DNA of 64,000 bases from Candidatus Omnitrophota bacterium (lineage in GTDB: Bacteria > Omnitrophota > Gorgyraeia > Velamenicoccales > JABMQK01), in the NCBI GenBank assembly GCA_028711115.1, contig JAQTSV010000001.1, positions 134,032 through 198,031 on the forward strand, in the 5' to 3' direction. Shown one piece after another: positions 12,580-42,438 of this stretch. The notes below the pieces were generated by a model. It was given only the letters and a program-made list of their open reading frames with translations. It was not told the origin of the DNA and searched no databases. A program made the translations under genes and the position numbers. Position 1 is the stretch's first letter. The number at the start of each line of letters is the position of its first letter.

Positions 12580-13200
12580 ATGATTCTGCAAATTAATCCC
12601 AACAGAATGGAATTGTTGCGCCTCCGTCGGAGACTGGCCTTGGCCCGGCGCGGCCATAAACTTTTGCAGGATAAACTGGAAGAAATGATGCGCAGGTTCC
12701 TTAGCCTGCTTAAAGATATTGATAGGGCAAAAGAGGATTTTCAGAAATTAACCCAGAGTGTTTTGGCGGATTTATTATATTGCCGCATCACCAGTTCCCG
12801 GGATAATTTTCAGGAAGCAATGGGTAAGATTGATACACAAATGCGCCTGGCAGTTTCCACGCTAAGAATTATGAACGTGAAAGTCCCCGTATTTAATATA
12901 GAACAATTAAAAATAGACAGGCACTATGATTTTTTTAAGACTTCTGCGCAGCTGGATTTGGTAATAGCATCCGCCAAAGGATATATACAGTCACTTTTAA
13001 AATTAGCACAGCTTTTAAAAACCCTGGATATTTTGTCTTATGAGATTGAGCGCACCCGCAGGCGCGTAAATGCCCTGGAGTATATGCTCATACCCTCGAT
13101 AGAGGAGACAATACGTTATATTACTCACAAGCTTAATGAATTTGAGCGCGGCAATTTAGTGCGGCTTATGCGCGTAAAAGAGATTGTACGCAGTCATTAG
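12580..13200 (+). CDS. atpD: V/A-type ATP synthase subunit D (central stalk)
   Basis: PNRMELLRLRRRLALARRGHKLLQDK N-terminus and RRRVNALEYMLIP motif are typical of subunit D. Confidence 0.85.
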   Translation: MILQINPNRMELLRLRRRLALARRGHKLLQDKLEEMMRRFLSLLKDIDRAKEDFQKLTQSVLADLLYCRITSSRDNFQEAMGKIDTQMRLAVSTLRIMNVKVPVFNIEQLKIDRHYDFFKTSAQLDLVIASAKGYIQSLLKLAQLLKTLDILSYEIERTRRRVNALEYMLIPSIEETIRYITHKLNEFERGNLVRLMRVKEIVRSH

Positions 13201-13511: not shown

Positions 13512-13892
13512 ATGGTTGATAAAGAAGAATTAAATGCTATTTCTCAAAAGGTAATAGGTCTTGCATTTGATGTTCATAATGAATTGGGGCCGGGATTTAT
13601 CGAGAGAATATACTCTGAAGCATTAGCGCTGGAATTTGCAAGAAACAATGTTAAGTTTGAAAAAGAAAAAACAATAAAGATAGGCTACAAAGGCAAAGAA
13701 TTAGGTGAGCAGAGAATAGATTTTTTGATAGAAGGAGAAATAATTCTGGAAATAAAAGCAGCGGAATCAATAAGTAAAATACATTTAGCGCAAATTCTTT
13801 CTTATCTAAAGGCATTGAATAAAAAATTAGGGCTCATTCTAAATTTTTGTAATACGAAACTCGAAATCAAGCGAGTCGTTAATAATTTTTAA
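13512..13892 (+). CDS. GxxExxY family protein (PD-(D/E)XK nuclease-like)
   Basis: 126 aa with the family signature GPGFIERIYSEAL (GxxExxY) and the core RIDFLIEGEIILEIKA (D...ExK). Confidence 0.8.
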   Translation: MVDKEELNAISQKVIGLAFDVHNELGPGFIERIYSEALALEFARNNVKFEKEKTIKIGYKGKELGEQRIDFLIEGEIILEIKAAESISKIHLAQILSYLKALNKKLGLILNFCNTKLEIKRVVNNF

Positions 13893-13898
13893 ATACAT

Positions 13899-13912
13899 AT
13901 CTGCGCAATTTG
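13899..13912 (-). repeat. inverted copy of the 14-nt repeat (ATCTGCGCAATTTG)
   Basis: Matches the reverse complement of CAGATTACGCAGAT at 12 of 14 positions. Lies 7 nt after the GxxExxY stop, so the gene is bracketed by inverted repeats. Confidence 0.7.
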
Positions 13913-13954
13913 CTGACATGTTGTTTACTTGAAATTTGCGGTATCAGCGGTTTC

Positions 13955-14032
13955 GGGGACGTCGTTTAGCCTGGCTAAGACCCTTGATTGTCGATCAAGT
14001 GACCGGGGGTTCAAATCCCCTCGTCCCCGCCA
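13955..14032 (+). tRNA. tRNA-Asp (anticodon GTC), CCA encoded
   Basis: Manual cloverleaf. Acceptor GGGGACG/CGTCCCC, anticodon stem CTTGA/TCAAG with loop TTGTCGA, T-loop TTCAAAT, discriminator G followed by CCA. Confidence 0.9.
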
Positions 14033-14108
14033 ATTTTTAAGTAAACCCTTCCGACGAGAGCCAATGCAATTTTAGGCTTGAGTAGAAGGGGATTCGAACT
14101 TTTTAATT

Positions 14109-14153
14109 GGGGCCATCCTAGGATCGTAGGCTGTCCTCAAATAGGATGTCCCC
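14109..14153. repeat. 12-nt imperfect inverted repeat (GGGGCCATCCTA ... TAGGATGTCCCC) with a 21-nt spacer
   Basis: 11 of 12 positions are complementary. Ends 25 nt upstream of the methyltransferase ATG. Function unknown (possibly an operator or RNA hairpin). Confidence 0.5.
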
Positions 14154-14177
14154 GATAAAAACATAGGCCCCAAAATT

Positions 14178-15272
14178 ATGGCAAACAGCCATCTTACAAA
14201 CGCAAAAAGGGTAAAGAATGACGAGTTTTATACCCAGTATGGTGATATTCAAAAAGAGATTGAAGCGTATCTGGAGTACAACTCCGATGCATTTCGCAGC
14301 AAGGTGGTGTATTGCAACTGTGACGATCCGTTCGAGAGCAATTTCTTTCGCTATTTCGTGCTAAATTTCAACAAGCTCGGATTGAAACAGCTTATCACCA
14401 CCAGCTACAAGCCCTCGCCCGTGGCCAACACACAGCTGGAATTGTTTGGTGAATACAAAACTCTCACAAAATCAAAAGGTCGTCCAAAGGTAACCGCCAA
14501 TAAGTTTATTATCAACGAGGTGCACGACATAGACGGCGACGGCGAATTTAACTTGAAGGATGTTGCCAAGCAGTTAAAGGCAAACAAACACAACGAATGG
14601 ACGCCGCTAGAAGGCGACGGCGACTTCCGTAGCGATGAATGTGTAAAACTACTTAAACGATCAGATATAGTGGTAACAAATCCGCCGTTCAGTCTGTTTC
14701 GTGAATATGTTAAACAACTTTTTGATTACAACAAAAAATTCGTGATTATTGGCAATAAAAATGCGATTACTTATAAGGAGATTTTTCCGCTTATAAAAGA
14801 TAATAGGATGTGGGCTGGGGTAACTAGTTTTAATAAAGACATGCTCTTTATTTCACCAGAGAAAATTGATCCGTCAAAACTACCGAGTACAGCGACTAGG
14901 GTTGTTGATGGTGTAGCCTACTTGCGTTCGCCTTCGATATGGCTATCAAGTCTTGACCACGGACGACGTCACCAACCATTGCCGCTTATGACAATGAAAG
15001 AAAATTTGAAATACAGCAAGCACAAAGAAATTAAAGGTAAGAAGGCGTATGATAAATATGACAATTGCGATGCCATAGAAGTGCCGTTTACCGATGCGAT
15101 TCCAAGTGATTATGAGGGCGTAATGGGTGTGCCGATCAGTTTTTTGGATAAATATAATCCAGAACAGTTTGAGATTATAAAATTTAGACACGGCGATGAT
15201 GGAAAAGATTTGCGATTAAAAGACGGAACCTGCCCATATTTTAGAGTTTTAATTAGACATAAAAAGAAATAA
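14178..15272 (+). CDS. N6-adenine DNA methyltransferase, EcoRI-methylase family
   Basis: N-terminus [22 protein letters not shown]...[18 protein letters not shown] and catalytic [10 protein letters not shown] (NPPF) match my recollection of the M.EcoRI-type family (Pfam EcoRI_methylase). Confidence 0.85.
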
Positions 15273-15273
15273 T

Positions 15274-16443
15274 ATGAAAACAACACTCAAAACTAACATC
15301 ACTGTCAAAGACATTTGCGAAGGGTTTGTTTATAACGAATTGGAGGGTAAAGGATTATTCGGTTTGTCTGGTAAGCTCACTATTCAGCCGGAGTATCAGC
15401 GCAACTATATCTATGCTTCCGATGGCGGAAAAAAAGAAATGGCCGTCATCGAATCAGTCCTCAAAGGATATCCAATAGGGTTGATATATTTTAATAAAGT
15501 GAGTGAAAGCAATTCGGAAGTTTTAGACGGCCAACAGCGCATCACCAGTCTCGGACGTTTCATAACTGATAAATTCGCTATTAAAGATGAAAATGGTATG
15601 GAGCAATATTTTGGCGGTATGGCAAAAGACAAACAAGCCAAGATTTTGGAAACGAAACTAACTATTTATGAATGCGAAGGCAAAGAAAGCGAAATAAAAG
15701 AGTGGTTTAAGACAATAAATATTGTTGGCGTTCCGATCAATGCTCAGGAAGAGCGTAATGCTGTGTATTCCGGTTCGTTTGTTACGCTTGGTAAAGAAGA
15801 ATTCAGCAATAGCCAAAATGCTAATATTCAAAAATGGAGCGCGTATATAAAAGGCAGCGCCAACCGGCAGGAGTTTTTGGAATGTGCGCTGGACTGGGTC
15901 AGCAAAGGCCATATTGACGATTACATGAGTCATCATCGCTTCGACAAAAATATTACTGAGTTAAAGAAATATTTCAACAGTGTGATTGATTGGGTTTCCA
16001 GTGTATTTACTGATGTTGAAAGCGAGATGCGTGGGCTTGAGTGGGGACGACTGTACGAAGAGTATCGCAAGAAAGCATATAACCCTTCGAAAGTGTCAGT
16101 TGAGGTACAAAAGCTTTACGCTGATCCATATGTAAATAATCGCAAGGGTATTTTTGAGTATATTCTCGGTGGTTCAGTCGACACAAAATTGCTCGAAGTT
16201 AGAGTCTTTGACGAAGCAACTAAAAAAGCGGTTTATGCAACACAAACTGCTAAAGCAAAGAAAAAAGGCGAATCAAACTGCCCGCATTGCGCTATTGGAC
16301 ACGACGCCAACAAGAGTAAGATTTGGAATTTTGTCGAAATGGACGCCGACCATGTTGCAGCATGGAGTAAAGGCGGAAAAACAGCATCCAAAAACTGTCA
16401 AATGTTGTGTAAAACACATAATCGGGCAAAAGGTAATCGATAA
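15274..16443 (+). CDS. DUF262 (ParB/GmrS-like, DGQQR motif) - HNH endonuclease fusion protein
   Basis: N-terminal [11 protein letters not shown]...[13 protein letters not shown] is typical of DUF262. The C-terminal CPHC...[12 protein letters not shown]...[15 protein letters not shown] is an HNH/His-Me finger with a zinc-ribbon cysteine pair. Starts 1 nt after the methyltransferase stop. Confidence 0.8.
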
Positions 16444-16873: not shown

Positions 16874-17716
16874 ATGGGAAATCAAATTACTAGTCCAAAT
16901 ACCTTAGTTGCTTATGTTGATATTTTGGGTTTTTCGAGCATTCTCGAAAAAGAAGATCCAGATGTTTATTACAATGCAATCAATAAGGCATTAGCTGAAT
17001 GGAACAAACATTTCAGCAAGGATATTACAAATAAATATGAATTATCAAGAAAGTTTGCAAGCAGCATATTTTTAGAGGTTTTTAGCGATACTTTTGTAAT
17101 TGCAGTTAATGAACAAAGATTAATTGAAGACGCAGAACTAAAAGTAACGCCACCAGTGGTATTCCATGTTTTCGCTTACCTCATTTCATATTTGATAAAA
17201 GATTTATTTTTGGAAACAGGACATCTTTTGCGAGGAGCTATTGGGAGAGGGCAATTTTATCTTAATGAATTTGAAGCTTTAAAAGGGAACAATTTCATTT
17301 TTAGCAAAGCATTAAGTGATGCGTATGAGGCCGCAGAGAAAATCGCAGATACCCCAAGGATTTTAATTCACGAAAATATTTTTAGCGAATTTAAGCCAGA
17401 AGAACTTTGTAGCAGTCAGCCGATTAGCACATTGATTAGAGATGAAGACGGAATTTTATATTTAAATGTATACGGTCCCATGGTGCTTCGTCTTAACTTG
17501 GAGATAGCTACTTTTGTAAAAGCAAAGGGAATTATAGAAGATGCGATTAGCAAATACAAAGATGATGTTATAAAGAGAAGAAAATGGATTTGGTTCGCAA
17601 ACTATCACAACAGAATCATTTGTCGTATTATAAAGCACAGCAATAACATTCAGCTTTATCCCGAATATAAAGAATTTAAGGAGAAAGAAAATCTTGTTAC
17701 GGTAAGAATACCGTAG
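16874..17716 (+). CDS. hypothetical protein with class III nucleotidyl-cyclase-like (palm/CHD-like) motifs
   Basis: 280 aa. VAYVDILGFSS (Asp16), EVFSDTFVIAV (Asp72), LLRGAIGRGQFY, FSKALSDAYEAAEK and TPRILIHENIF occur in the same order as FADIVGFT / GDxxM / RIGIHTG / VNxAARLE / ILVSE of cyclase homology domains. The ~90-aa C-terminal region is unassigned. This is motif-level resemblance only. Confidence 0.45.
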   Translation: MGNQITSPNTLVAYVDILGFSSILEKEDPDVYYNAINKALAEWNKHFSKDITNKYELSRKFASSIFLEVFSDTFVIAVNEQRLIEDAELKVTPPVVFHVFAYLISYLIKDLFLETGHLLRGAIGRGQFYLNEFEALKGNNFIFSKALSDAYEAAEKIADTPRILIHENIFSEFKPEELCSSQPISTLIRDEDGILYLNVYGPMVLRLNLEIATFVKAKGIIEDAISKYKDDVIKRRKWIWFANYHNRIICRIIKHSNNIQLYPEYKEFKEKENLVTVRIP

Positions 17717-17759
17717 AAAGACTCATTATTAATTACTATGATAAATAAAGGAGGCTCAA

Positions 17760-17957
17760 ATGTTTGAAAAATTCAATGAGAGAGCGAAGAAGCTGACAGC
17801 TGCGGATATCATATTGGTTAAGTGGGCGGTGTTGTTTGCTACGATTATTATCGTAAAGCTCGTGCCGCAACTTTTGAATATCAATTATCCGGTGCTGGTC
17901 GTACTTATGCTTCTATGCTCGGCTGTTCCTTTTTACAAATTCTGGATTAAGAAGTAA
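17760..17957 (+). CDS. small membrane protein (65 aa, two predicted TM helices)
   Basis: SD AAAGGAGG 5 nt upstream. Hydrophobic segments WAVLFATIIIVKLVPQLL and YPVLVVLMLLCSAVPF. Lies 43 nt downstream of the cyclase-like gene and shares the terminator at 18065. Confidence 0.6.
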   Translation: MFEKFNERAKKLTAADIILVKWAVLFATIIIVKLVPQLLNINYPVLVVLMLLCSAVPFYKFWIKK

Positions 17958-18064
17958 TTATCCTAACCCCTTGCTGCCAGCCGTGATTTGCCTTTGTTTA
18001 TATTTTGTGCTATACTTATATCAGAAAAGGGTTAGTGGGTAGTTAACACTAACAAACACTGACC

Positions 18065-18092
18065 AAGCCCCTTAAAACAGGGGCTTGTTTTT
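18065..18092 (+). terminator. rho-independent terminator
   Basis: AAGCCCCT-TAAAAC-AGGGGCTT (8-bp stem) followed by GTTTTT. Confidence 0.75.
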
Positions 18093-18115
18093 ATGAACCG
18101 CTTAGCGGTTCATAA
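18091..18115. repeat. perfect 11-bp inverted repeat TTATGAACCGC-TTA-GCGGTTCATAA
   Basis: Read directly. Immediately follows and overlaps the terminator T-tract. Confidence 0.85.
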
Positions 18116-18126
18116 ACCCCACCGAG

Positions 18127-18159
18127 TGTTTAAAAATTGTCGAAGAGAATTTTTGAACA
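18127..18159 (+). repeat. 12-bp hairpin TGTTTAAAAATT-(9 nt)-AATTTTTGAACA
   Basis: Includes one T-G pair. Flanked by partially complementary CCCCACC (18117-18123) and GGCGGGG (18168-18174). Confidence 0.6.
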
Positions 18160-18264
18160 TCATACGAGGCGGGGTAAGTTCCCACCAACAAAATCCATTA
18201 CCAAACCCAAACTTTCTGCTATAATTATCTAAAGCTTACGATTTGTAAACAGTCAGGGGATTAG

Positions 18265-21200
18265 ATGACCATAGTACTTATTATATTGTTGGCCGGGTTT
18301 ATCGTTCTTATAGCCTATGCCTTATATGCTTTGGGTTTTCTGCAGGAGCCGGTAGATAAACTGATAGGTAAGGAGAAAAAGTCCGACAGCTCCGAGCAGG
18401 ATACCGCCGTATTGAATAAACAGGTCAGCTCTTTGAGAAGGGCGCTGGATAAACGAGAGGCAGAATATGCTACCTTAAAAAAAGAAACCGAAAGGGCGCA
18501 GCGCAACGAATTAGAGCTGCAGGAGCAATTGCTCAAGCAGAAAGAATGGACCAATGCCGATAAGGATAAATTGGAAAGAACTCTTGCCCAGAACGCAGAG
18601 CTGAAAAATGAATTTATCAAGAAAGAAACAGAGCTGAAGACAGAATTCTCCAAGGCCGTGAATTTAACCAAGGAGGTAAAAGACCTAAAGCAGAAAATAC
18701 AGGATTTCGAGGAGGATAAGAAAAATAAATTAAGCGAAATGATGGCCTTAAAGGCGCACATAGACATATATGAAAAAGGCAAAAAAGAACACTTAAAGAT
18801 TATCTCCGACTTTATGAAGAAAGAGGAGGAGAGCGAATTTATTTCCAAGGATATGTTCAGGAAGCTCCAGGATGATTACAATAAATTATTGAAAGAATAT
18901 ACGCAGGAATATGGCGCGCTGGAGAAGGAACTGGAGATAAAAGAAAGACAGCTGCAGCAATTATTATTAGCCAAGGTAACGGACAGGCAGGAGGCAGTAG
19001 CCGCGGCGCCAACACAAAATCCGCCGCCAGAAACACCGCCAATATCAACAGTGCCGCAGCCACCGCAAGAAAAACCCAGAGACATTCAGGAAGTTGCCCC
19101 AGCTCCGGCAAAGCCGCCAGTTGTGGAAGGATTGCCAGCGCAGCCACAGCCACCAACGCAAGAAGAAAAGCCGCAGCCAGCAGTTGCAGTGCCACAGGAA
19201 GAAATAAAACCAGGCGAACCTCAGGTTACAGAACCGCCGCAACAAGGGCAAGCTGAAGCAACACAACGCAAGGAAGAAATCCCTGCTCCCAAGTTTAATC
19301 TAGAGCAGTTAAGAAATATCGGAATTATGGCTCATATCGATGCCGGCAAGACCACGCTCACTGAAAGAATTTTATTTTACACCGGAAAATCACATAAAAT
19401 AGGCGAAGTCCACGACGGGACTGCCACTATGGACTGGATGGTGCAGGAACAGGAAAGAGGAATTACTATTACCTCCGCAGCTACCACCTGTTTATGGAAA
19501 GGCCACAGGATTAATGTAATCGATACGCCCGGCCACGTGGATTTTACCGTCGAGGTGGAGAGAAGCCTGCGCGTTTTAGACGGGGCAGTGGTTGTGTTTT
19601 GCGCTGTTGCCGGCGTGCAGGCGCAGTCCGAAACCGTATGGCGCCAGTCAGAAAAATATAATGTCCCCAAATTAGTATTCGTAAATAAAATGGACCGCAC
19701 CGGCGCTGATTTTTTTGCCGTGGTAAAGAGTATTGAAGAGGAACTTCAGTCAAATCCCATTATGGTGCAGATTCCTGTGGGCGCGGAACAGGATTTTGCT
19801 GGCGTAATCGACCTTCTGGAGATGAAGGCCTATGGATTTGACGAGGAGACTTTCGGCCAGGATGTTGTGGCCTGCGAAATCCCCGATGAATATAAAGAAG
19901 CCGCCAAAAAATACCGCCACCTTATGATAGAAAAAATTGCCGCATGCAATGATGCGCTGATGGAAAAATACCTTAAATCCGAGGATTCCATAACCAAGGA
20001 TGAATTGGTGGTTGTTTTGCGCAGTGCCACAATTGCCAACAGGGCTGTGCCTGTTTTGTGCGGCACGGCTTTGCGGAATAAAGGAGTGCAGCTTCTGCTC
20101 GACGCTGTGACTATGTATCTGCCTTCACCACTTGAGCTTCCTCCTGCCAAAGGAAATTCACCTGATGCGCCGGAGACAATTCTGGAAAGAAAGGCATCTA
20201 TTCAGGAGCCGTTTTCTGCTCTGGCATTCAAGGTGCAGACAGACCCGCATATGGGAAAACTCATTTATTTTAGGGTTTATTCGGGATTTCTCAGCGCAGG
20301 TTCTTATGTATTGAATTCCACCAAGAATAAAAAAGAAAGAGTGGCCAGGCTTTTTCAGATGCACGCCAATCAGAGAGAAAATATAGATGACGTCTTTACC
20401 GGAGATATCGCAGCCACAGTAGGGCTTAACTATACCATAACAGGCGATACTTTATGTGACGAAGATAATCCTGTTATTCTGGAGGCGATGCATTTTCCTA
20501 CGCCGGTGGTGTCTCTTAGCATAAAACCGGTAAGCCGCACAGACCAGGATAAATTAGGCAGGTCATTGGCGAAATTATCGGAAGAAGATCCTACCTTTAT
20601 TGCGCAGACAGACAGAGAAACAGAAGAAACGCTTTTAACCGGTATGGGCGAACTGCATTTAGAAATTATCGTGGACAGATTAAAGCGCGAGTTTGGCGTA
20701 AATGCCGAAGTAGGCCGGCCAAAAGTGGCTTACAGAGAAACCATCACGCAATCCGTAACCGAAGAGAGTAAATACATAAGGCAATCCGGCGGCAGAGGCC
20801 AGTATGGCCATGTAGTTTTTGAAATATCTCCGGCGGAATCCGGCAAGGGCCTGGATTTTGAAGACAGCATTAAAGGCGGCGCGATTCCCAAAAATTACAT
20901 TCCCTCCATAGAAAAAGGCGTGCGCGAAGCCATGCAGGACGGTATTTATGCGGGCTATCCTGTGGTGGACGTAAAAGTGAATCTGATAGACGGTTCCTTT
21001 CACGAGGTGGATTCTTCGGATATTGCCTTTCAGATTGCCGCCAGAGGCGGTTTCAAAAGCGGTTTTATGAAGTGCACGCCGATATTGCTTGAGCCATATA
21101 TGAAGCTTGAGGTTATTACGCCCGAGGAATATGTAAGTAACATTACTGCGCATATTTGTTCTCACCGGGGAAAAATTCAGGGCATGGAGACCAAAGGCAA

Positions 21201-21393
21201 ACAGAAAGTTGTCCTTGCGCAGGTGCCCCTTGCGGAGATGTTCGGTTCCACCACGGCATTCCGCTCATTAACCAGCGGCAGGGCAAGTTCATCCATGGAG
21301 TTTGAAAAGTATGCGCCGGTGCCTGCGGAAATCGCCAAAAAAATTATAGAAGAAAATAAAAAATCAGAAGAGAATAAGGGCAATAAGGAATAA
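18265..21393 (+). CDS. fusA: elongation factor G with a ~340-aa N-terminal extension (TM helix, coiled coil, Pro/Gln-rich linker)
   Basis: Residues ~343-1042 are canonical EF-G ([21 protein letters not shown], domains II-V including [10 protein letters not shown]). Residues 1-26 are hydrophobic ([26 protein letters not shown]), ~45-235 are K/E/L/Q heptad-like, and ~245-340 are P/Q/E-rich. SD-like AGGGGA lies before the ATG. Confidence 0.85.
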
Positions 21394-21454
21394 ATATCTG
21401 CCATAAAACTTTTTAGCGTTGCGCGACCTATCTGTCGCATTGTCTTTATATATA

Positions 21455-21463
21455 TGGTATAAT
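21455..21463 (+). promoter_or_regulatory. extended -10 promoter element (TGgTATAAT)
   Basis: TG at 21455-21456 and TATAAT at 21458-21463, about 35 nt upstream of the 21499 start. No convincing -35 element. Confidence 0.35.
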
Positions 21464-21498
21464 TATTTCCACGCAATTAACATAAGGAGCGAATTAAA

Positions 21499-21819
21499 AT
21501 GGTGACCATAGGCGAATTTAGAAACATCGAAATAAGAATTGCTACCATAAAAGAGGTAAACGACCATCCCAACGCAGACAAGTTATACCTGGTTAAGGTA
21601 GACCTCGGGGATAAACAGAAGGAATTAGTGGCCGGCATAAAACCTTATTATGCAAAAGAGAGCTTAATAGGCAAACAGGTGGTTGTAGTGGACAACTTGG
21701 AGCCGGCAGTGATCCGCGGCGTGGAAAGCCAGGGTATGTTACTGGCTGCGCAGGATGAATCCGGGATTGTTATTTTATCTCCGGAGCGAAATATAAAGGA
21801 GGGTAGCCGGGTAAAATGA
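21499..21819 (+). CDS. tRNA-binding domain protein (CsaA/Trbp111/EMAP-II-like OB fold)
   Basis: IRIATIKEVNDHPNADKLYLVKVDLG...VVVVDNLEPAVIRGVESQGMLLAA is typical of the MetRS C-terminal-like tRNA-binding domain. Confidence 0.8.
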   Translation: MVTIGEFRNIEIRIATIKEVNDHPNADKLYLVKVDLGDKQKELVAGIKPYYAKESLIGKQVVVVDNLEPAVIRGVESQGMLLAAQDESGIVILSPERNIKEGSRVK

Positions 21820-22241
21820 AAACCATAACCAAATTTATTGATGTTTCCACCAAAGGAAACAACGACATTATCGATATCACCTACGAAGTAAAAGAAAAAT
21901 TACGCGAATCAAAACTGGAAGAGGGCAGTGTGCTTTTGTTTATAACCGGCTCTACTGCCGCGCTCACTACCATGGAATATGAGCCGGGCCAGATTCAGGA
22001 TTTGAAAGAAGTCGTCGATAAATTAATACCCCACAATAAAACATACGCCCATAATCATTCAATGTCCGGCTCCGACGGTAATGCGCATTCGCACCTCAGG
22101 GCTTCTTTATTCAAGGCAGACCTGACTATCCCTTTTGTGGACTCCGAACTTTTATTGGGCACATGGCAGCAGATCGTCCTTATTGATTTCGATATTTATC
22201 CGCGCCAGAGAAAGATAGCGGTGCAATTTACAGGCGAATAG
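21816..22241 (+). CDS. YjbQ/UPF0047 family protein (secondary thiamine-phosphate synthase-like)
   Basis: Family pattern NNDIIDIT...GSVLLFITGSTAALTTMEYEPG...NAHSHLRASL...GTWQQIVLIDFD. Confidence 0.8.
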   Translation: MKTITKFIDVSTKGNNDIIDITYEVKEKLRESKLEEGSVLLFITGSTAALTTMEYEPGQIQDLKEVVDKLIPHNKTYAHNHSMSGSDGNAHSHLRASLFKADLTIPFVDSELLLGTWQQIVLIDFDIYPRQRKIAVQFTGE

Positions 22242-28724: not shown

Positions 28725-29852
28725 ATGCCACAGGATAATAATCGAATTAAAAGTTCCCAGGAAGCCAAAGAATACCACAAAATAAAGAATTTCTTATTTG
28801 TGGTGAATCTGTTGATTTCGCTTTTGGTTCTTTCGGTATTCATAGTATTTGGTTTATCCATATTCTTAAGATTTTATCTTAATATGTTTTTTGCAAACCT
28901 GATTATATTAAACGGCGTATTTTTTATTATTTTTTATTTGGTAGTGATTATATTCAGTTTCCCCCTGGATTTATTCGAGGGTTTTATTTTGGAGCATAAA
29001 TTTAAACTCTCGCGGCAAAATTTCGGCAGTTGGCTAAAAGACTATCTCAAGAAAAATTTCATTACGCTGTCAATCGCTTTGATTGTCGTCGAGTGCGTAT
29101 ATGTATTTATAGGAGCTTTTTATAACAGCTGGTGGGTGTTTGCGGCTTTGCTCTGGTTAATAATCACAGTTATCTTTACCAAGGTGTTTCCGCTTATAAT
29201 TCTTCCCCTGTTTTTTAAATCACGCCCTTTGGCCGACAAAAAACTTAAAGAACGCATAGATAAATTAGCCAGGAAATTTAATTTTAAATTATCTAATATT
29301 TTTATTCTGGAGTTGTCCAAAAAGACCATAAAGGCCAATGCAATGGTTACGGGTATGGGTATAACCAAACGCATATATTTATCTGACACTTTGCTGAATG
29401 ATTTTTCTCACGAGGAAATCGAAATAGTGGTGGCCCATGAGTTGGCGCACAACAAAAACAAAGATATCTATAAACATATCGCAGTGTCATTTCTCATCAG
29501 TATTCTTTCTTTTTATGTCTGTGATTTTGTTTTAAGCAGGGCAACATATCATTTGGGTTATGCGGCAAAGAATGACATAGCCAATCTGCCTTTGTTTTCT
29601 CTGCTAGTTTTTATTGTGGGATTTTTTATGCTTCCTTTTCAAAATGGTTTTTCTCGCTATATGGAAAATAACGCCGATGCGGATTCCATAAAAGTTACGG
29701 CCAATCCCAAAGGCTTTATCTCGATGATTTCAAAACTGGGCCGCAAAAATTTAGCAGATTTTTCGCCCACGCCAATTGTGGAATTTTTCCTTTATGACCA
29801 TCCGCCGATTTCTAAAAGAATTAATTTGGCCAAACAGTTTATCAAGGATTGA
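28725..29852 (+). CDS. M48 family zinc metalloprotease (Ste24/HtpX-like), multi-TM
   Basis: HELAHNKNKD (HExxH), a downstream ENNADADS glutamate, and an N-terminal multi-TM region. Confidence 0.8.
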   Translation: MPQDNNRIKSSQEAKEYHKIKNFLFVVNLLISLLVLSVFIVFGLSIFLRFYLNMFFANLIILNGVFFIIFYLVVIIFSFPLDLFEGFILEHKFKLSRQNFGSWLKDYLKKNFITLSIALIVVECVYVFIGAFYNSWWVFAALLWLIITVIFTKVFPLIILPLFFKSRPLADKKLKERIDKLARKFNFKLSNIFILELSKKTIKANAMVTGMGITKRIYLSDTLLNDFSHEEIEIVVAHELAHNKNKDIYKHIAVSFLISILSFYVCDFVLSRATYHLGYAAKNDIANLPLFSLLVFIVGFFMLPFQNGFSRYMENNADADSIKVTANPKGFISMISKLGRKNLADFSPTPIVEFFLYDHPPISKRINLAKQFIKD

Positions 29853-29853
29853 C

Positions 29854-31914
29854 ATGTTGATTAAAAAGATTCCTCAGGATGAGCGAAGAAAATATAGGCG
29901 TCTAGATACTGTCTTTCCTGTCGAATTTCAGATTCTGGATAAAGAACTTAATCCTGTTTCGGGCTGGCAGCAGGCTTTTAGCCAGGATATATCCAAAGGA
30001 GGCATCTGCCTTACAATCAACAACCTCAATAAAGACAAGCCTCTGAAATTAGTCTCTCGCGAGACGAATCTGCTTCTGCAGATTCACTCTCCAATATCCG
30101 AGAGGCATTTTCTTGCATATACAAAAGTTATGTGGGCAAAGAAAATACAGGAATCTCCATTTGAGCAATATATCGCAGGCGTGAGTTTCTCTAATGTTGA
30201 CTCGAGAGAAATTTCACGGCTTCTTAGCTATGTCCGCTTTAAGAAAATTCTCTGGCATACACTGCAGCTTTTAATTCTCGGCCTGTTATGCTATTCGGCA
30301 TTCGCTGTGGTAAATAATCTGAGGTTAAACTCCCGCAATAATCTGCTTATCAATCAGTATTCCCAGTTAATACATAAGAATTTAGAGTTAAATGAAAATT
30401 ATAAGATGCTTTTGGATGAAAGAGAGAAATTAGACAACGCTTTAGAGAATAGCGAACAAAAGATTGTCGTTTTGGAGGAAACATTGAGTAAAACAGAGAA
30501 TTCCAAGAATGAACAAATTCAAGCATTAGAGAATGAATTAATAAAAGCCAACAGCGTTATAAAGAAGTCCGAGCAGGATTTGATGCGCATAAAAGAACTG
30601 GAGAAAAAAATAAACGAGTTAAAGAATGCAAAAGAAGAAGATATCGCTAAGCTTAAGAGTGAAATTTTTTCTTTGCGAGAAGAGGGAAATAATCTAAAAG
30701 AAAAACTTTCCCAGGCCGTGGCCAAAGAATCCAAAATCCAGGCAGAGACCTCTGCGGTTGTAGAAGAGGAAACAGTCCTGGCAGAAGGTTTCCAGGATAA
30801 ATTATATAATTGGCTCAGCACACATCAAATAAGCAAAACAGGTTTAATAGTCAGCTTTGAAGGCGATTATAATTTAAAAGACACCACCTTTATTTATGAC
30901 CAGGCCCTGGCAGTTATCACCTATACTTTATTCGGTGATTATGAAAAGGCAAAAAGAGGATTGGATTTCTTTCTTAATAAGGCGGAAAAAATAGACGGAG
31001 AAGGTTTTTATAACGCCTATTATTCCAAAAAAGGAGATGTGGCGGAATATATTGCCCACGCCGGACCTAATTTATGGCTAGGCATCGCCATTGCGCAATA
31101 TACCAACAGGACCAAAGATTATACTTATATAAATTTAGCCAAACAGATTGCCCATTGGATAAATTCCCTGCAGGATAGAGAAGGCGGCATAACAGGCGGC
31201 AGAGGGCTCACTTGGTACAGCACCGAGCATAATCTTGATGGATTTGCATTCTTTAGTATGTTGTATCAATTGACAAAGGATGAAGGATACAGGGACACCG
31301 CCGGAAAAATACTGAACTGGCTGGAAAAGTATGCCTATGGTAACGAATCTATCCCGGTTAACCGCGGCAAAGGGGATTCCACAATTGCCACAGACACATA
31401 TGCCTGGTCCATAGCCGCATTAGGTCCGGCAATTTTAAAAGAATTAAATATGGACCCTGATGGGATATTGGAGTTTGCCGTAGAGAATTGTGCGGTGGAG
31501 GCAGAATTTAAAGATCGCTCAGGCAAGAATATCGCCGTAAGCGGATTTGACTTTTCCAAACCTCAAAATATCGCCAGGGGCGGAGTTGTTTCCTGTGAAT
31601 GGACCGCCCAGATAGTTTTATCTTTCAAGATTATGTCCGATTATTATCTGAGGCTCGGCCAGGCAAATAAATCCGCTTATTATAAAAATCAGGCGCTTAG
31701 ATATCTCAATGAATTAAATAAAATGGCTATTTCTAGTTTTTCTTCTTTTGGCCGGGGTGACTGGTGTTTGCCGTATGCTTCGCATGAGAATGTTGATACA
31801 GGCCACAGCTGGCGTACGCCCAAAGGCAACAGGACCGGCTCTGTGGCTGCCACAGCCTATACTATTTTTGCCATTTCTGGTTTTAATCCGCTCAGGCTTT
31901 ACAGTAATGAATGA
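29854..31914 (+). CDS. PilZ domain - TM - coiled coil - large C-terminal (alpha/alpha-barrel-like) domain protein
   Basis: ATG 29854. PilZ motifs RRKYRRLD (RxxxR) and DISKGGICL (DxSxxG). TM segment LLILGLLCYSAFAVV. About 150 aa of K/E/L/N coiled coil. The C-terminal ~370 aa is W/Y/G-rich with no family recognised. Confidence 0.65.
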   Translation: MLIKKIPQDERRKYRRLDTVFPVEFQILDKELNPVSGWQQAFSQDISKGGICLTINNLNKDKPLKLVSRETNLLLQIHSPISERHFLAYTKVMWAKKIQESPFEQYIAGVSFSNVDSREISRLLSYVRFKKILWHTLQLLILGLLCYSAFAVVNNLRLNSRNNLLINQYSQLIHKNLELNENYKMLLDEREKLDNALENSEQKIVVLEETLSKTENSKNEQIQALENELIKANSVIKKSEQDLMRIKELEKKINELKNAKEEDIAKLKSEIFSLREEGNNLKEKLSQAVAKESKIQAETSAVVEEETVLAEGFQDKLYNWLSTHQISKTGLIVSFEGDYNLKDTTFIYDQALAVITYTLFGDYEKAKRGLDFFLNKAEKIDGEGFYNAYYSKKGDVAEYIAHAGPNLWLGIAIAQYTNRTKDYTYINLAKQIAHWINSLQDREGGITGGRGLTWYSTEHNLDGFAFFSMLYQLTKDEGYRDTAGKILNWLEKYAYGNESIPVNRGKGDSTIATDTYAWSIAALGPAILKELNMDPDGILEFAVENCAVEAEFKDRSGKNIAVSGFDFSKPQNIARGGVVSCEWTAQIVLSFKIMSDYYLRLGQANKSAYYKNQALRYLNELNKMAISSFSSFGRGDWCLPYASHENVDTGHSWRTPKGNRTGSVAATAYTIFAISGFNPLRLYSNE

Positions 31915-38421: not shown

Positions 38422-39600
38422 TTGTCAACATCTAATATCGCGGCAGAAACACAACAATCTACCATTGATCCGGCATTGTTAAAAAAGAGCGTTATCGGCG
38501 ATTATCGCCGTATTGATTTATGGAAAGATGTATCGGAGCTTGATTGGGAAGATTGGCACTGGCAGGTTAAAAATCGTATTTGTAAAAAGGAAGAATTATC
38601 ACATCTTATAAAAATAACCCCCGAAGAGGAAGAAGGAATTAATAAATCTCACGGCCGTCTTGCTATGGCGATTACGCCGTACTGGGCAAATTTAATGGAT
38701 CCCGACGATTCTAATTGCCCTATACGCAAACAAGCTGTACCTGTAAAATCAGAATTAAAAATTTCGCAACATGAGATGACAGATCCCTGCGCAGAAGACA
38801 GAGATTCTCCTGTGCCTGGGTTGGTGCATCGTTATCCGGACAGGGTGTTGCTTTTGGTTACAGAGATGTGTTTTTCATATTGCCGCCATTGTACTCGACG
38901 CAGAATGGTCGGTGAAGGCAGAAATATTTTAGACCGGAATAATTTAGATAAAGCTATAGATTATATCCGTTCCGACCGTAAGATAAGGGATGTTTTGATA
39001 TCCGGCGGCGATCCGTTTATGTTGGAAGACAATGTATTGGAGGAAATTATTAAGAAGTTGCGTTCCGTCTCCCAAATAGAATTTTTACGTATAGGCACGC
39101 GTGCGCCGGTAACATTGCCGCAGAGAATTACTATTGGTTTGGTGAATATGCTTAAAAAATATTCACCGATTTGGATTAGTATTCATTTTAATCACCCCCG
39201 GGAAATAACCAAGCGCTGTAAATTTGCCTGTGATATATTAGCCGATAACGGATTCCCTTTGGGCAGCCAGACAGTATTGCTTAAGGGCGTAAATGACAGG
39301 CCTTATGTTATGCGCAAACTAATGCACGAACTATTGGAAATCCGCGTGCGCCCTTATTATATCTATCAATGCGACCCGGCAAAAGGCACATCGCACTTCC
39401 GTACGCCTATATCCGTAGGCATAAATATCATGGAGAAGTTAAGAGGCCATACTTCCGGCTATGCCGTGCCTACTTATGTTGTGGATGCGCCCGGCGGAGG
39501 CGGTAAGATTCCTGTGGGGCCAAATTATCTTATTTCAGAAGCAAAAGACAGATACACATTCCGCAATTACAAGAAGAAAATCTATACATATATAGAGTAG
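38422..39600 (+). CDS. kamA: lysine 2,3-aminomutase (KamA family radical SAM)
   Basis: TTG start 6 nt after AAGGAGG. CFSYCRHCTRR (CxxxCxxC), ISGGDPFML, GSQTVLLKGVND, YYIYQCDPAKGTSHFRT, VVDAPGGGGK. Confidence 0.9.
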   Translation: MSTSNIAAETQQSTIDPALLKKSVIGDYRRIDLWKDVSELDWEDWHWQVKNRICKKEELSHLIKITPEEEEGINKSHGRLAMAITPYWANLMDPDDSNCPIRKQAVPVKSELKISQHEMTDPCAEDRDSPVPGLVHRYPDRVLLLVTEMCFSYCRHCTRRRMVGEGRNILDRNNLDKAIDYIRSDRKIRDVLISGGDPFMLEDNVLEEIIKKLRSVSQIEFLRIGTRAPVTLPQRITIGLVNMLKKYSPIWISIHFNHPREITKRCKFACDILADNGFPLGSQTVLLKGVNDRPYVMRKLMHELLEIRVRPYYIYQCDPAKGTSHFRTPISVGINIMEKLRGHTSGYAVPTYVVDAPGGGGKIPVGPNYLISEAKDRYTFRNYKKKIYTYIE

Positions 39601-39778: not shown

Positions 39779-41743
39779 ATGGAAGGTTTCTCACCCGACA
39801 AAAAAAGAAACTTTATTTTGGTTTCTCATTCGCAGGCAGGAAAGACCACGCTTTGCGAATCTTTATTGTCACTTGCCGGCGCAACAACCCGTAAAGGTTC
39901 TGTTGCAGAAGGAAATACCGTCAGTGACTATTCCGAGGAAGAGAAGGCTCGCAAGATTTCTATTTCATCCAGCGTAATGAATCTTACATATAAAGGCCAT
40001 TTTATTCAGATGATAGATTCGCCCGGCTATGCGGATTTTATCGGCGAGGTTGTGTCGTGTTTACGGGGAGTGGACGCGGCAATAGTTATAATAGATGCCT
40101 TTGGCGGCATAGAAGTGGGCACCGAGCGCGTTTGGGAAATGCTGGACAATTTAAATCTGCCCCGTTTGATTTTTGTCAATAAATTAGACAAAGAAAGCAC
40201 CAATTTAGACAAAACTTTTGCAGAGATAAAAAATAATCTTTCTAAAAAAGCCATTTTGATTAAAGAGCCGTTGTCCGCAGAGAATATCGAAACAATCGCC
40301 GAGAGTAACGATGCGTTATTGGAAAAATATCTGGAAGGAAAAGAAATTCCGCAGGACGAACTAAAGAAGGCCTTGAAAACCGCAGTGGCCCAGGGAAAAG
40401 TCTATCCTGTATTTAGCGGCTGTGCCATTTCGGATAAAGGCGTTAAAGAAGTTTTGGAGGCAATTATTGAGTATCTTCCCAGCCCTCTGGAAAGGCCCAG
40501 GCCGAAGGTCAAGGACGCAAAGAGCAATCAGGAAAAAGAAATTGAGTTGAGTGAATCAGCGCCATTGGCAGGATTTGTCTTTAAGACCGTCGCTGATCCG
40601 TATGTGGGTCAGCTTTCCATATTAAGATTATTCTCAGGTAAGCTCCAGGCGAATACAAGTTTTTATAATGTTACAAAACAAAGCAAAGAGCGTTTCAGCC
40701 AGATTTATTGTCTGCAGGGGAAAGAACAGCGGCCCATTACAGAGGCTTCCTGCGGAGATATTGTCGCCATAGCCAAGTTAAAAGACACCAGCACAAACGA
40801 CAGCATATCCAGCGAGAATAATCCTGTTTTGTTTGAGCCCACAGTTTTTCCCGAACCCATATATTCCGCCTCCATAAAACCTAGGACTCGCCAGGACGAA
40901 GATAAAATCTCAGTTACCTTGGCCAAAATCACCAGCGAAGATTCAACTTTTAAGATAACGCGCGATGCCCAGACAAAAGAAATGATAATCTCGGGGATGG
41001 GCGATCAGCATTTAAATGTAATGGTTGAGAGAATGAAGAAGAGGTTTAATGTAGAGGTGGATTTAGGCACTCCCAAAGTTCCTTATAAAGAGACGCTTGT
41101 AAAGACAGCCAAGGTCCAGGGAAAATATAAAAAGCAATCCGGAGGCCGCGGACAATACGGCGATGTCTGGCTGGAAGTGGCGCCATTGCCACGCGGAGGA
41201 GATTTCGAATTTGTGGATAAAATTGTCGGAGGCGCAATACCCAGAAATTATATTCCCTCAGTAGAAAAAGGCGTAAGAAATGCAATGGTCGAAGGCATAA
41301 TTGCCGGCTATCCTTTTGTGGATGTGAGAGTCACTTTATATGACGGTTCTTATCATGAGGTTGATTCTTCAGATATGGCTTTTCAGATTGCCGGTGCCAT
41401 GGCTTTTCGCAAGGCAGTTTTAGAGGCAAGCCCGGTATTAATCGAACCAATTATGAATGTCGAGGTATTGATTACGGAAGAATTTATGGGCCAGATTTCC
41501 GGAGATGTCAATTCGCGCCGTGGCAGGGTCATGGGCATGGATTCGCGTTCCAAATATCAGGTTCTGAAAGCCCAGATCCCTCTGGTTGAGATGTTTAGCT
41601 ATGCGGCAGATTTAAGGTCTATGACCGGCGGCAGAGGCACATATTCCATGAGTTACTCTCATTACGAAATAGTTCCGCCGAAGATCGCCCAGGAAATTAT
41701 CGCCAAATACCAGCAGACAAGAAAAGCGGAGCAGGAAAGATGA
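39779..41743 (+). CDS. elongation factor G paralog (EF-G-2-like)
   Basis: 654 aa with a five-domain EF-G layout. G1 SHSQAGKTT, G3 DSPGYADF (Tyr84, codon TAT at 40028-40030, in place of the catalytic His), G4 NKLD, and [10 protein letters not shown] in domain IV. Confidence 0.85.
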   Translation: MEGFSPDKKRNFILVSHSQAGKTTLCESLLSLAGATTRKGSVAEGNTVSDYSEEEKARKISISSSVMNLTYKGHFIQMIDSPGYADFIGEVVSCLRGVDAAIVIIDAFGGIEVGTERVWEMLDNLNLPRLIFVNKLDKESTNLDKTFAEIKNNLSKKAILIKEPLSAENIETIAESNDALLEKYLEGKEIPQDELKKALKTAVAQGKVYPVFSGCAISDKGVKEVLEAIIEYLPSPLERPRPKVKDAKSNQEKEIELSESAPLAGFVFKTVADPYVGQLSILRLFSGKLQANTSFYNVTKQSKERFSQIYCLQGKEQRPITEASCGDIVAIAKLKDTSTNDSISSENNPVLFEPTVFPEPIYSASIKPRTRQDEDKISVTLAKITSEDSTFKITRDAQTKEMIISGMGDQHLNVMVERMKKRFNVEVDLGTPKVPYKETLVKTAKVQGKYKKQSGGRGQYGDVWLEVAPLPRGGDFEFVDKIVGGAIPRNYIPSVEKGVRNAMVEGIIAGYPFVDVRVTLYDGSYHEVDSSDMAFQIAGAMAFRKAVLEASPVLIEPIMNVEVLITEEFMGQISGDVNSRRGRVMGMDSRSKYQVLKAQIPLVEMFSYAADLRSMTGGRGTYSMSYSHYEIVPPKIAQEIIAKYQQTRKAEQER

Positions 41744-42438
41744 AGGCTGCCATATATGGTTTGGATAATTTTCCTGTGGGCAAAAAAAACGTACCCGACG
41801 AAAGATTGGACCGCCTGGAAGAAATGTTTCAGTCCAAAAAAGTCACTTCTGTGCAGATTGAATTTATTTCCGTAGAAGATGTTAAAGACGCAGAAGTGGT
41901 GTTTTCCAAAGAAGACAAAAAAACAGACCTTGTTTTGTCTGATCTGGAATATGTCCAGGACAGGCTCACCAAAGATATTCCCGACGCGGAAAAGACGCTT
42001 TTTTCCAAGGCGAAAGAGATTCTCGAAAAAGAGGAATTTTTATTTAAACACCTAAGCAAGGAAGAACTGAAAATCTTAAGAGGTTTTCCTTTGCTTACGG
42101 TTATTCCCGTATACCTTATTAAAGATGAAGATAGCTTTGATGAAGACAAGGATTTAAAGGAAATCTACTATGCCTCGGGTAGAATTTGTTTCTTTACCGC
42201 CGGAGAAAAAGAAGCGCGCGCCTGGTCTATACAAAACGGCACAAATGCATTTGATGCGTCGGGCTATATCCATTCAGACATTAAACAGGGTTTTATCCGC
42301 GCCGAGGTGGTGAGCTTGGAAGATTTATTCAATACAGGGCATTATAACCAGGCAAAGAACGAAGGCAAGATAAGATTAGAGAATAAAGATTATATCGTCA
42401 AAGACGGCGATTATATTATTTTCAGAACGAATAAATAG
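41740..42438 (+). CDS. YchF-like protein with degenerate P-loop (retains YchF C-terminal TGS-like/DUF933 domain)
   Basis: The C-terminus [16 protein letters not shown]...[13 protein letters not shown]...[20 protein letters not shown] aligns closely with E. coli YchF (YFTAGVKEVRAWTI...GFIRAQTISFEDF...[20 protein letters not shown]). The N-terminus reads [12 protein letters not shown] instead of GLPNVGKST. 232 aa versus about 363. An ATGA overlap joins it to the upstream gene. Confidence 0.75.
   Translation: [232 protein letters not shown]

Follow-up and report, generated by a model that had tools for sequence, protein, structure and literature searches.

The locus and its product

The stretch of DNA analysed here (the window) comprises 64,000 nucleotides of contig JAQTSV010000001.1 from the Candidatus Omnitrophota assembly GCA_028711115.1. 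It carries a gene for an elongation factor G (EF-G) with an N-terminal extension that is predicted to consist of a membrane-spanning anchor, an extended coiled coil (the stalk) and a disordered linker (the tether). A single open reading frame (ORF) on the forward strand, at 18265..21393, contains 1042 codons plus a stop and specifies a product of 1042 amino acids, to which we refer as the anchored EF-G. The original prediction, made from the nucleotide sequence, described a 1042-codon ORF in which a hydrophobic helix, a coiled coil and a Pro/Gln-rich linker precede a full-length EF-G with intact GTPase motifs. The first part of this description is borne out by the ORF, its composition and an AlphaFold2 model, the second by Pfam and NCBIfam profile matches and the positions of the motifs. 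The features of the gene and its surroundings are listed in Table 1.

Table 1. Features of the anchored EF-G gene and its immediate surroundings (window coordinates; SD, Shine–Dalgarno; TM, transmembrane; pLDDT, predicted local distance difference test)
Feature	Position	Strand	Basis
Terminator-like hairpin ending the upstream 65-amino-acid gene	18064..18087	+	9-bp stem with 6 GC pairs, then a T-run
Promoter-like site: TTACCA, 16-nt spacer, TG-TATAAT	18198..18225	+	10/12 matches, extended -10; about 40 nt 5' of the ATG
SD-like GGGG run, in-frame TAG and ATG start	18250..18267	+	...CAGTCAGGGGATTAGATG
Complete anchored EF-G gene	18265..21393	+	1042 amino acids plus stop
N-terminal signal-anchor TM helix, residues 2-27, predicted N-out/C-in	18268..18345	+	AlphaFold2 helix 2-22, pLDDT about 84
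Charged, disordered juxtamembrane segment, residues 28-44	18346..18396	+	pLDDT <50 for 27-46; K/R-rich in orthologues
Predicted coiled-coil stalk helix 1, residues 45-189	18397..18831	+	AlphaFold2 helix, pLDDT about 80; 3.5-residue periodicity
Trp95 codon in stalk helix 1	18547-18549	+	Invariant in 72 orthologues
Conserved helix break, residues 190-194	18832..18846	+	pLDDT <50; inside the KKKE..SEW/F-V/I-x-K motif
Predicted stalk helix 2, residues 195-246	18847..19002	+	AlphaFold2 helix
Disordered Pro/Gln/Glu-rich tether, residues 247-342	19003..19290	+	pLDDT about 33; 28% P, 15% Q, 14% E
ATC codon (Ile339), used as start of the 704-amino-acid EF-G in the NCBI annotation	19279..19281	+	From the N-terminus of P0006
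Full five-domain EF-G, residues 343-1042, with G1-G5, catalytic His424 and domain IV tip loop	19291..21390	+	Pfam, NCBIfam, motifs
Weak terminator-like hairpin, 30 nt past the stop	21423..21438	+	5-bp stem; consensus match only

The EF-G domain

All sequence and fold tests place the C-terminal part of the protein in the EF-G family. The Pfam models GTP_EFTU, EF-G_D2/GTP_EFTU_D2, EFG_III, EFG_IV and EFG_C all match above their cut-offs between residues 348 and 1026, and the NCBIfam equivalog model for EF-G (TIGR00484) scores 1043.9 bits over residues 343-1032 against a cut-off of 659.4. G1 (AHIDAGKTT, 356-364), switch I (RGITI, 398-402), G3 (DTPGHVDF, 420-427) and G4 (NKMD, 474-477) are all present, as are a G5 region at residues 602-607 and the domain IV loop SGGRGQYGH at 841-849. 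Conservation was assessed in an alignment of 72 orthologues with the window protein as the first row, to which all figures for orthologues below refer; the G1-G5, catalytic His and domain IV tip-loop positions are invariant in it.

The AlphaFold2 model is that of a monomer, calculated for the 1042-residue protein with the 72 orthologues. Over the EF-G part the pLDDT is mostly 75-94, and Foldseek comparison with the structures 2xex, 2bm0, 1fnm and 4m1k gives template-modelling scores (target) of 0.91-0.93 with a root-mean-square deviation of about 3 Å. The sequence is 52-54% identical to the solved EF-G structures from S. aureus and T. thermophilus. Models for EF-G2 and EF-G-like paralogues were considered and rejected, their scores falling below the cut-offs (NF009377, 492.6 versus 890; NF058620, 496.5 versus 1000), and the same is true of the Tet(M)/Tet(O) ribosomal protection proteins (NF012153, 381 versus 775).

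The anchored EF-G domain is only slightly more diverged than that of its soluble sister clade, described below: identity to outgroup EF-Gs is 57.7% for the anchored clade versus 60.4% for the free clade, with one clade-diagnostic column only. No catalytic or ribosome-contacting motif has been lost, and the sequence evidence favours a fully active translocase. The original prediction had suggested a localized pool of translocase or ribosomes, or a regulatory or rescue role, and these ideas are conjectural.

The anchor, stalk and tether

In the model a helix (residues 2-22) and a disordered segment (23-44) are followed by a long helix (45-189), a break (190-194), a second helix (195-246), a disordered region (247-345) and the EF-G fold. 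The orthologues begin, at about residue 1, with an uncharged segment of 25 residues on average. Lys and Arg together number 0.04 before this segment and 5.4 in the 20 residues that follow it. An uncharged start with a K/R-rich C-terminal flank indicates, by the positive-inside rule, a signal-anchor in the N-out/C-in orientation. A cleavable Sec signal peptide or a lipoprotein was ruled out, there being no charged n-region, an uncharged segment of 25 residues and a K/R cluster placed after the segment; residues 1-27 contain no Cys and therefore no lipobox Cys.

Residues 45-246 include no Pro and two Gly. Their hydrophobic periodicity is strongest at 3.5 residues, and the occupancy of the a/d positions, 5.09 of 8, compares with 4.42±0.21 in shuffled sequences. 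Besides the invariant Trp95, eleven positions of the stalk are conserved in at least 90% of the orthologues, namely L57, K120, F128, K130, I180, K184, E191, K195, L201, L223 and E236. The first helix carries the motif EF.KNV.L at residues 127-134. The KKKE..SEW/F-V/I-x-K motif, within which the helix break lies, is kept in fused as well as stand-alone homologues of the stalk. The combined length of the TM helix and stalk is nearly constant at 233.6±6.3 residues. The tethers of the orthologues range from 58 to 147 residues, with 16% Pro, 24% Asp or Glu, a mean net charge of -10 and almost no conserved positions. The alignment shows that the predicted architecture, along with the length and the motifs of the stalk, is conserved across the Omnitrophota.

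Start site and expression signals

The in-frame TAG lies immediately 5' of the ATG, so that Met1 is the earliest possible start. In the N-terminal part of the product Met occurs at positions 1, 159, 160, 184, 197 and 355, and a listing of the codons agrees with the original prediction that no in-frame ATG lies between Met197 and Met355. The same source had named a GTG/TTG pair, devoid of an SD sequence, as the only alternative starts. The number was too low, since codons 198-354 contain five such triplets (TTG209, GTG263, GTG287, TTG290 and GTG309); the second half of the statement stands in that none has a usefully placed SD. An SD-like GGAAGGA abuts TTG290 with zero spacer, and the other four have no SD-like run within the 18 nt on their 5' side.

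With a GC content of 40.3% in the window, about 6% of random codons would be stops, and simple arithmetic from composition gives a chance of about 3e-10 for the 342 open codons 5' of the EF-G part. The promoter-like site listed in Table 1 is the top-scoring one within 17700..21900, and no promoter-like site was found on the + strand inside the linker region. With the terminator-like hairpin marking the end of the gene before it, the anchored EF-G gene seems to be transcribed as a unit of its own. Between that hairpin and the promoter-like site lies an intergenic perfect palindrome, TTATGAACCGC-TTA-GCGGTTCATAA (18091..18115), which could be an operator or a second hairpin.

DNA was at hand for 12 anchored genes. 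Seven of them have no ATG, GTG or TTG in the 45 codons preceding the EF-G domain, and no such codon is conserved in position among the 12, so that the conserved start with an SD by which two isoforms of the IF2 type are recognized is missing. The sole Met common to the anchored genes lies within the sequence RNIGIM, past the first β-strand of the G domain. Since there is no conserved internal start codon, a soluble EF-G cannot arise from the anchored genes by canonical internal initiation. Translation from the first ATG is supported by these sequence features.

Conservation and truncated annotation

An exact look-up of the 1042-residue product returned no match; NCBI holds just a 704-residue call. 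The latter (P0006) is entered as 'MAG: elongation factor G [Candidatus Omnitrophica bacterium]' in assembly GCA_028714715.1, contig JAQTLW010000001.1, and is 100% identical over 700 residues. The organism has been assembled at least three times, each time with the same EF-G.

To gauge how widespread the extension is, closest relatives were counted among the best 120 protein clusters at 90% identity, which are 67-100% identical to the EF-G part. An N-terminal extension of more than 250 residues that opens with a hydrophobic helix is present in 80 of these 120 clusters, with five more carrying a partial extension. True soluble forms, which begin M-x-R and have G1 at residue 17, account for 11. 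A further 23 are short calls with odd N-termini (MP.P.. or MSLDK..), mostly from NCBI, and most of them group among the long forms in the tree. The long forms come from four independent assembly sources (JGI, ENA, Logan and NCBI) and all are from Omnitrophota. With residues 1-364 as the query, five partial Omnitrophota proteins were recovered that show the order hydrophobic helix, coiled coil, acidic/Pro linker and EF-G G1. Insertions and deletions among orthologues in the upstream part preserve the reading frame. A relative of 77% identity retains the long ORF and also the downstream gene order (tRNA-binding protein, YjbQ, CxxCxxCC, LPG_synthase_C, chorismate-binding enzyme, transglutaminase, TPR and M48 peptidase). 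The original prediction had judged that the fusion looked genuine and had proposed a survey of relatives for the same extension; with the extension found in so many clusters from independent assemblies, that judgement is confirmed.

The truncation is not peculiar to this organism. In the complete genome CP070797.1 (locus L103, 13692..16847) the homologue is annotated as 797 residues, and the ORF encodes 1051 residues and opens with a TM helix. The NCBI entries of about 700 residues in the anchored clade that begin MP.P.. or MSLDK.. point to the same error. Public annotation systematically truncates the anchored genes, fitting them to the length of the EF-G family. A choice of start guided by the family removes about 340 real codons and leaves the long proteins invisible in NCBI protein sets and in the analyses derived from them. 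We note two short EF-Gs of 711 residues (P0085 and P0086; JGI and ENA calls) that nest beside the long P0074 and begin MQKKEAKKKIRVLPELNL. In these two the anchor may truly have been lost secondarily, or their ORFs may be interrupted.

Phylogeny and paralogues

A neighbour-joining tree with 200 bootstraps was rooted on eight EF-Gs from Bacillota, Nitrospirota and Proteobacteria. The Omnitrophota EF-Gs are monophyletic with respect to these outgroups in 200 of 200 bootstraps. The true soluble (free) forms make up one clade in 193 of 200. A single clade that unites all anchored forms and has the free clade as its sister group is recovered in 137 of 200, which is moderate support. In a first neighbour-joining tree, rooted on the divergent 654-residue paralogue encoded in the window, the free clade was nested inside the anchored forms; this was an artefact of the rooting, undone by re-rooting on the outgroups. 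The free clade comprises at least 120 clusters, with members named Omnitrophica, Aureabacteria and Susulua. The clade to which the window protein belongs holds only long forms or forms truncated by annotation. The framing of the protein as a lone oddity is not supported: it belongs to a large anchored clade, the probable sister of a large soluble Omnitrophota clade, and is probably not 'the' canonical fusA.

In two genomes the free and anchored genes lie 1.6 kb apart (L001, 10001..16940; L103, 10001..16847), in the order free EF-G, SpoU-type methylase, PG-binding protein, anchored EF-G. The two copies in L001 are 73% identical. In a third candidate pair the two genes are on contigs of equal length, 133,688 bp. 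Downstream of the anchored gene in L001 are genes for ribosomal protein S21, an RF-1-domain (ArfB-like) protein and an RRM protein. A separate case is P0364, an anchored protein of 1029 residues. Its EF-G part, with 77% identity to the soluble P0076, groups by score with the free clade, a sign that domain exchange, recombination or gene conversion may have taken place between the paralogues.

A conventional fusA product starts some 10-16 residues before G1 and its gene belongs to an rpsL-rpsG-fusA-tuf operon. In the anchored EF-G, G1 begins at residue 356, and no gene for S12, S7 or EF-Tu was found anywhere in the window or, in its relatives, in flanks of 6-10 kb (less where the contig was short), more than 20 loci in all. 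The free-form loci that were examined likewise have no adjoining S12, S7 or EF-Tu gene. A scan of viral contigs for Omnitrophota-like str operons gave no full-length match above 57% identity. A contig scan with the free EF-G, using patterns shared with Bacillota, found at least six Omnitrophota loci among the matches listed, this genome not included. Canonical S12→S7→EF-G→EF-Tu operons have been reported in complete Omnitrophota chromosomes in work covering 176 genomes (bioRxiv 10.64898/2026.06.07.730766); in the supplements of another study K02355 is scored for presence or absence, and copy numbers are not given (PMC10066038). A soluble, conventional fusA is likely to be present elsewhere in this genome. 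Given that two genomes hold both forms and that str operons have been reported, the anchored protein is probably a specialized paralogue rather than the only translocase.

The EF-G-2 paralogue that had been noticed in the window is real. It is encoded at 39779..41743 (+), has 654 residues and is 41% identical to the anchored EF-G domain. Its G1 reads SHSQAGKTT and its G3 DSPGYADF, with Tyr replacing the catalytic His; a deletion of about 45 residues in G' has removed the G' insert, and Asp takes the place of His at the tip of domain IV. Having lost the catalytic His and the G' insert, and with an altered domain IV tip, this paralogue cannot be a normal GTP-hydrolysing translocase, and in sequence it resembles the GTPase-deficient EF-G2 types. 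Upstream of it, at 38422..39600 (+), is a KamA-type radical SAM aminomutase (TIGR03820, 522 bits versus a cut-off of 525) that is related to models of EpmB, an EF-P modifier. An ORF of 232 residues at 41740..42438 (+), which overlaps the stop codon of the paralogue by 4 nt, matches the C-terminal part of YchF only. The three genes may be a small translation-related cluster.

The stalk module as a protein family

A profile of the N-terminal part, run against 1.84 billion representative proteins, gave 496 matches at E≤1e-3 and 259 at E≤1e-10. Among the matches are fragments of anchored EF-Gs and, as a distinct population, 52 representatives of 203-257 residues, all but two of which (50/52) have an N-terminal hydrophobic helix. 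The Trp and the ..SEW-V-x-K motif recur in these short proteins, whose sequences stop shortly past the motif. Complete stand-alone genes are found in three unrelated contexts: L084 5123..5827, which follows an ORF of at least 1673 residues, L100 8618..9292, which adjoins Cpn10, and L091 3188..4147, which adjoins cyclophilin. A metagenome scan with a narrow alignment of the module identified 17 loci. The existence of stand-alone proteins of about 225 residues indicates that the anchored EF-G is a true fusion of a pre-existing membrane stalk protein with EF-G.

Searches of the module against Pfam, NCBIfam and the sequences of the PDB gave generic coiled-coil noise only and no family match. The stand-alone membrane proteins P0194-P0272 (TM helix plus coiled coil, about 203-257 residues) are without a Pfam or NCBIfam assignment, and the stalk module is an uncharacterized protein family in its own right. 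The stalk profile also matches P0200, P0201, P0228 and P0238, proteins of 614-724 residues with a TM helix, repeated coiled-coil units and MshEN plus PilZ domains, at E values of about 1e-20 to 1e-28. These may be c-di-GMP-binding relatives of the stalk, or the similarity may be that of coiled coils only.

Comparison with known systems

Compared with canonical EF-G (FusA; TIGR00484), the anchored protein has the same five domains, all of the G motifs, the catalytic His, the domain IV tip loop and the fold. The differences are the 342-residue N-terminal extension and the absence of the S12-S7-fusA-tuf setting noted above. The retention of an extra copy implies a division of labour, as it does for other EF-G paralogues (EF-G2 of Thermus, Mycobacterium and Pseudomonas, and the split pairs of spirochaetes, planctomycetes and deltaproteobacteria), one of which, the EF-G2 of Bacteroides, has no GTPase activity (cited in PMC12172202). 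The known paralogues, however, are soluble and have diverged in catalytic or domain sequence, whereas the anchored EF-G keeps a canonical sequence and would differ in its cellular location.

Several proteins offer partial likenesses. The cytoplasmic membrane is the site of action or storage of two GTPases linked to translation, LepA/EF4 and the signal recognition particle (SRP) receptor FtsY. In FtsY, which binds for the most part peripherally, a disordered acidic stretch at the N-terminus adjoins the membrane-binding element; LepA has no TM helix. Neither is an EF-G, and the stalk module, with no Pfam or NCBIfam match, shows no sequence relationship to them. ZipA and TonB are built to the same plan, which starts with an N-out/C-in anchor at the N-terminus and continues through a charged region and a Pro-rich flexible or extended spacer to a C-terminal globular domain that is the effector. 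The likeness to these tethers is architectural only, with no homology detected, and the effector in the present case is a translation factor. RNase Y also places a TM helix and a coiled coil ahead of a cytoplasmic enzyme of RNA metabolism, but the anchored EF-G has no KH or HD domains. The match of stand-alone stalk homologues to the RNase-Y-related model NF009344 (E=2.8e-4; 19.6 bits versus a cut-off of 831) is probably driven by composition.

Literature searches aimed at membrane-anchored or membrane-tethered EF-G found none, and the papers on Omnitrophota and on EF-G cited here do not mention one, in line with the original prediction, which was aware of none. We describe the Omnitrophota anchored EF-G as a new family, recognizable in sequence by a predicted TM helix, a TM-plus-stalk region of about 234 residues with Trp95, EF.KNV.L and KKKE..SEW, an acidic Pro-rich linker and a full EF-G. 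EF-G is regarded as the archetype of a freely diffusing translation factor, and a conserved, phylum-wide form integral to the membrane would, to our knowledge, be the first core elongation factor to be spatially confined by its own sequence. The family offers natural experiments. Does the location at which a factor is supplied shape where ribosomes translate, and what they translate? How do ultra-small, host-dependent cells organize translation, and how do extremely long membrane or secreted proteins get made?

A proposed model: a membrane-anchored translocase

We favour, by a modest margin of belief, the explanation that the protein is a bona fide membrane-anchored EF-G paralogue, catalytically normal, that serves ribosomes lying no more than a few tens of nanometres from the membrane. 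An ancestral bitopic protein, consisting of an N-out/C-in anchor and a coiled-coil stalk of about 200 residues, would have been fused through a disordered acidic Pro-rich tether to a complete EF-G. The N-terminal anchor would target the nascent chain to the membrane and all else, EF-G included, would stay in the cytoplasm. The stalk probably oligomerizes and stands off the membrane. Coiled-coil geometry gives about 0.15 nm per residue, and lengths of about 21 nm for helix 45-189 and about 8 nm for helix 195-246 would follow. For a tether of about 96 residues the contour length would be about 35 nm and, from polymer scaling, the likely end-to-end distance about 8-10 nm, so that a GTPase-competent EF-G could reach ribosomes situated within a few tens of nanometres of the inner membrane face and dock there. 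A stalk of fixed length combined with a variable acidic Pro-rich tether may act as a spacer that holds EF-G off the anionic membrane and the rRNA, free to dock. N-terminally tagged EF-G is routinely active, so that a flexible N-terminal tether should be tolerated.

The anchored EF-G would thus carry out normal translocation, and probably recycling too, on membrane-proximal ribosomes only. These would include ribosomes docked at SecYEG or YidC and engaged in making membrane or secreted proteins, and the soluble copies of EF-G, where present, would supply the remaining cytoplasm. Most Omnitrophota cells are about 0.2 µm across (PMC10066038), and at this size the membrane shell within reach of the tether is a large share of the cytoplasm. 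Of the Omnitrophota proteins of at least 10,000 residues, 94% carry TM helices or signal peptides (bioRxiv 10.64898/2026.06.07.730766). Such very long proteins are a plausible reason to keep a translocase near translocon-engaged ribosomes.

Several points weigh against this explanation. The oligomerization and the orientation of the stalk are guesses, the AlphaFold2 model being monomeric. In a cell of 0.2 µm, a tether with a reach of tens of nanometres leaves EF-G hardly confined, which blurs the advantage of anchoring. The conserved stalk motifs and the stand-alone homologues suggest a specific partner or function that the model leaves unexplained. Finally, the only other EF-G paralogue within the window is the one that has no catalytic His.

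Alternative explanations

The anchor might instead sequester a latent factor, with a protease cutting the linker to free soluble EF-G when translation is switched on, for example in a shift from a free-living, ribosome-poor state to host-attached growth. There are parallels in the regulated release of membrane-tethered regulators and in LepA/EF4, for which storage at the membrane has been proposed. The linker is long, disordered and poorly conserved, and should be accessible to proteases. Free cells of V. archaeovorus have a low ribosome content that rises upon attachment to the host (PMC10066038), in keeping with such a switch. Nevertheless, we consider storage unlikely. No conserved cleavage motif is visible in the linker, where conservation is near zero; mere storage needs neither a fixed stalk length nor conserved stalk motifs, and soluble paralogues are already present in at least some of the same genomes.

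We assign a similarly low probability to a role as a docking adaptor, in which the stalk module builds or joins a membrane complex and EF-G is mainly a reversible, GTP-controlled handle that brings in ribosomes or polysomes, possibly so that the very long membrane and surface proteins of the phylum can be inserted or exported as they are translated. This idea draws on the independence of the module, a conserved family with an invariant Trp and motifs common to the stand-alone proteins, and on a Rosetta-stone argument that links the module functionally with the ribosome or EF-G. It also gains from the stand-alone copy that directly follows the ORF of at least 1673 residues and from the prevalence of TM helices and signal peptides in the longest Omnitrophota proteins, cited above. 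Binding of EF-G to the ribosome is transient, however, and would make a poor anchor. The catalytic motifs of the EF-G domain show no relaxation, neither the stand-alone nor the fused genes have conserved neighbours, and there are no Sec, YidC or SRP genes among them.

Doubtful as well, and marginally more so, is the proposal that the anchored protein is the only GTPase-competent EF-G in this organism, all elongation then being carried out by a membrane-tethered factor. The other EF-G homologue in the 64-kb window has Tyr for the catalytic His and no G' insert, no free-clade EF-G was attributed to this genome among the best 120 matches of either search, and the clade of the window protein comprises only long or annotation-truncated forms. 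Absence from the best 120 matches of each search is, however, uninformative. The large free clade, as the probable sister of all anchored forms, implies an old duplication, and the reported S12-S7-EF-G-EF-Tu operons of complete Omnitrophota chromosomes also argue for a second, soluble translocase. If the proposal were true, the stalk of fixed length would act like a ruler, setting EF-G level with the site at which ribosomes docked on translocons bind their factors, and protein synthesis in cells of about 0.2 µm would be organized as a membrane-associated process.

That the gene product is an ordinary soluble EF-G of 704 residues, with the upstream 338 codons being non-coding, a separate gene or the result of a chimeric assembly, is very improbable, since the NCBI call that speaks for it requires an ATC start, and since it runs counter to the long open frame, to the TM helix and stalk conserved in at least 80 independent clusters with frame-preserving indels, to the recurrence of the same EF-G in at least three assemblies of the organism and to the seven relatives of 12 in which no canonical start precedes the EF-G domain.

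Other genes in the window

The first part of the window, to about position 13200, is occupied by a V/A-type ATPase operon in which subunits I, c, A, B and D were identified. After this operon, at 13512..16443, come a PD-(D/E)XK nuclease gene and a restriction-modification-like pair consisting of an EcoRI-type adenine methylase and a GmrSD/HNH protein. Further downstream, at 29776..31914 (+), is a gene for a protein of 712 residues in which a PilZ domain at the N-terminus precedes a long coiled-coil stretch rich in helix.

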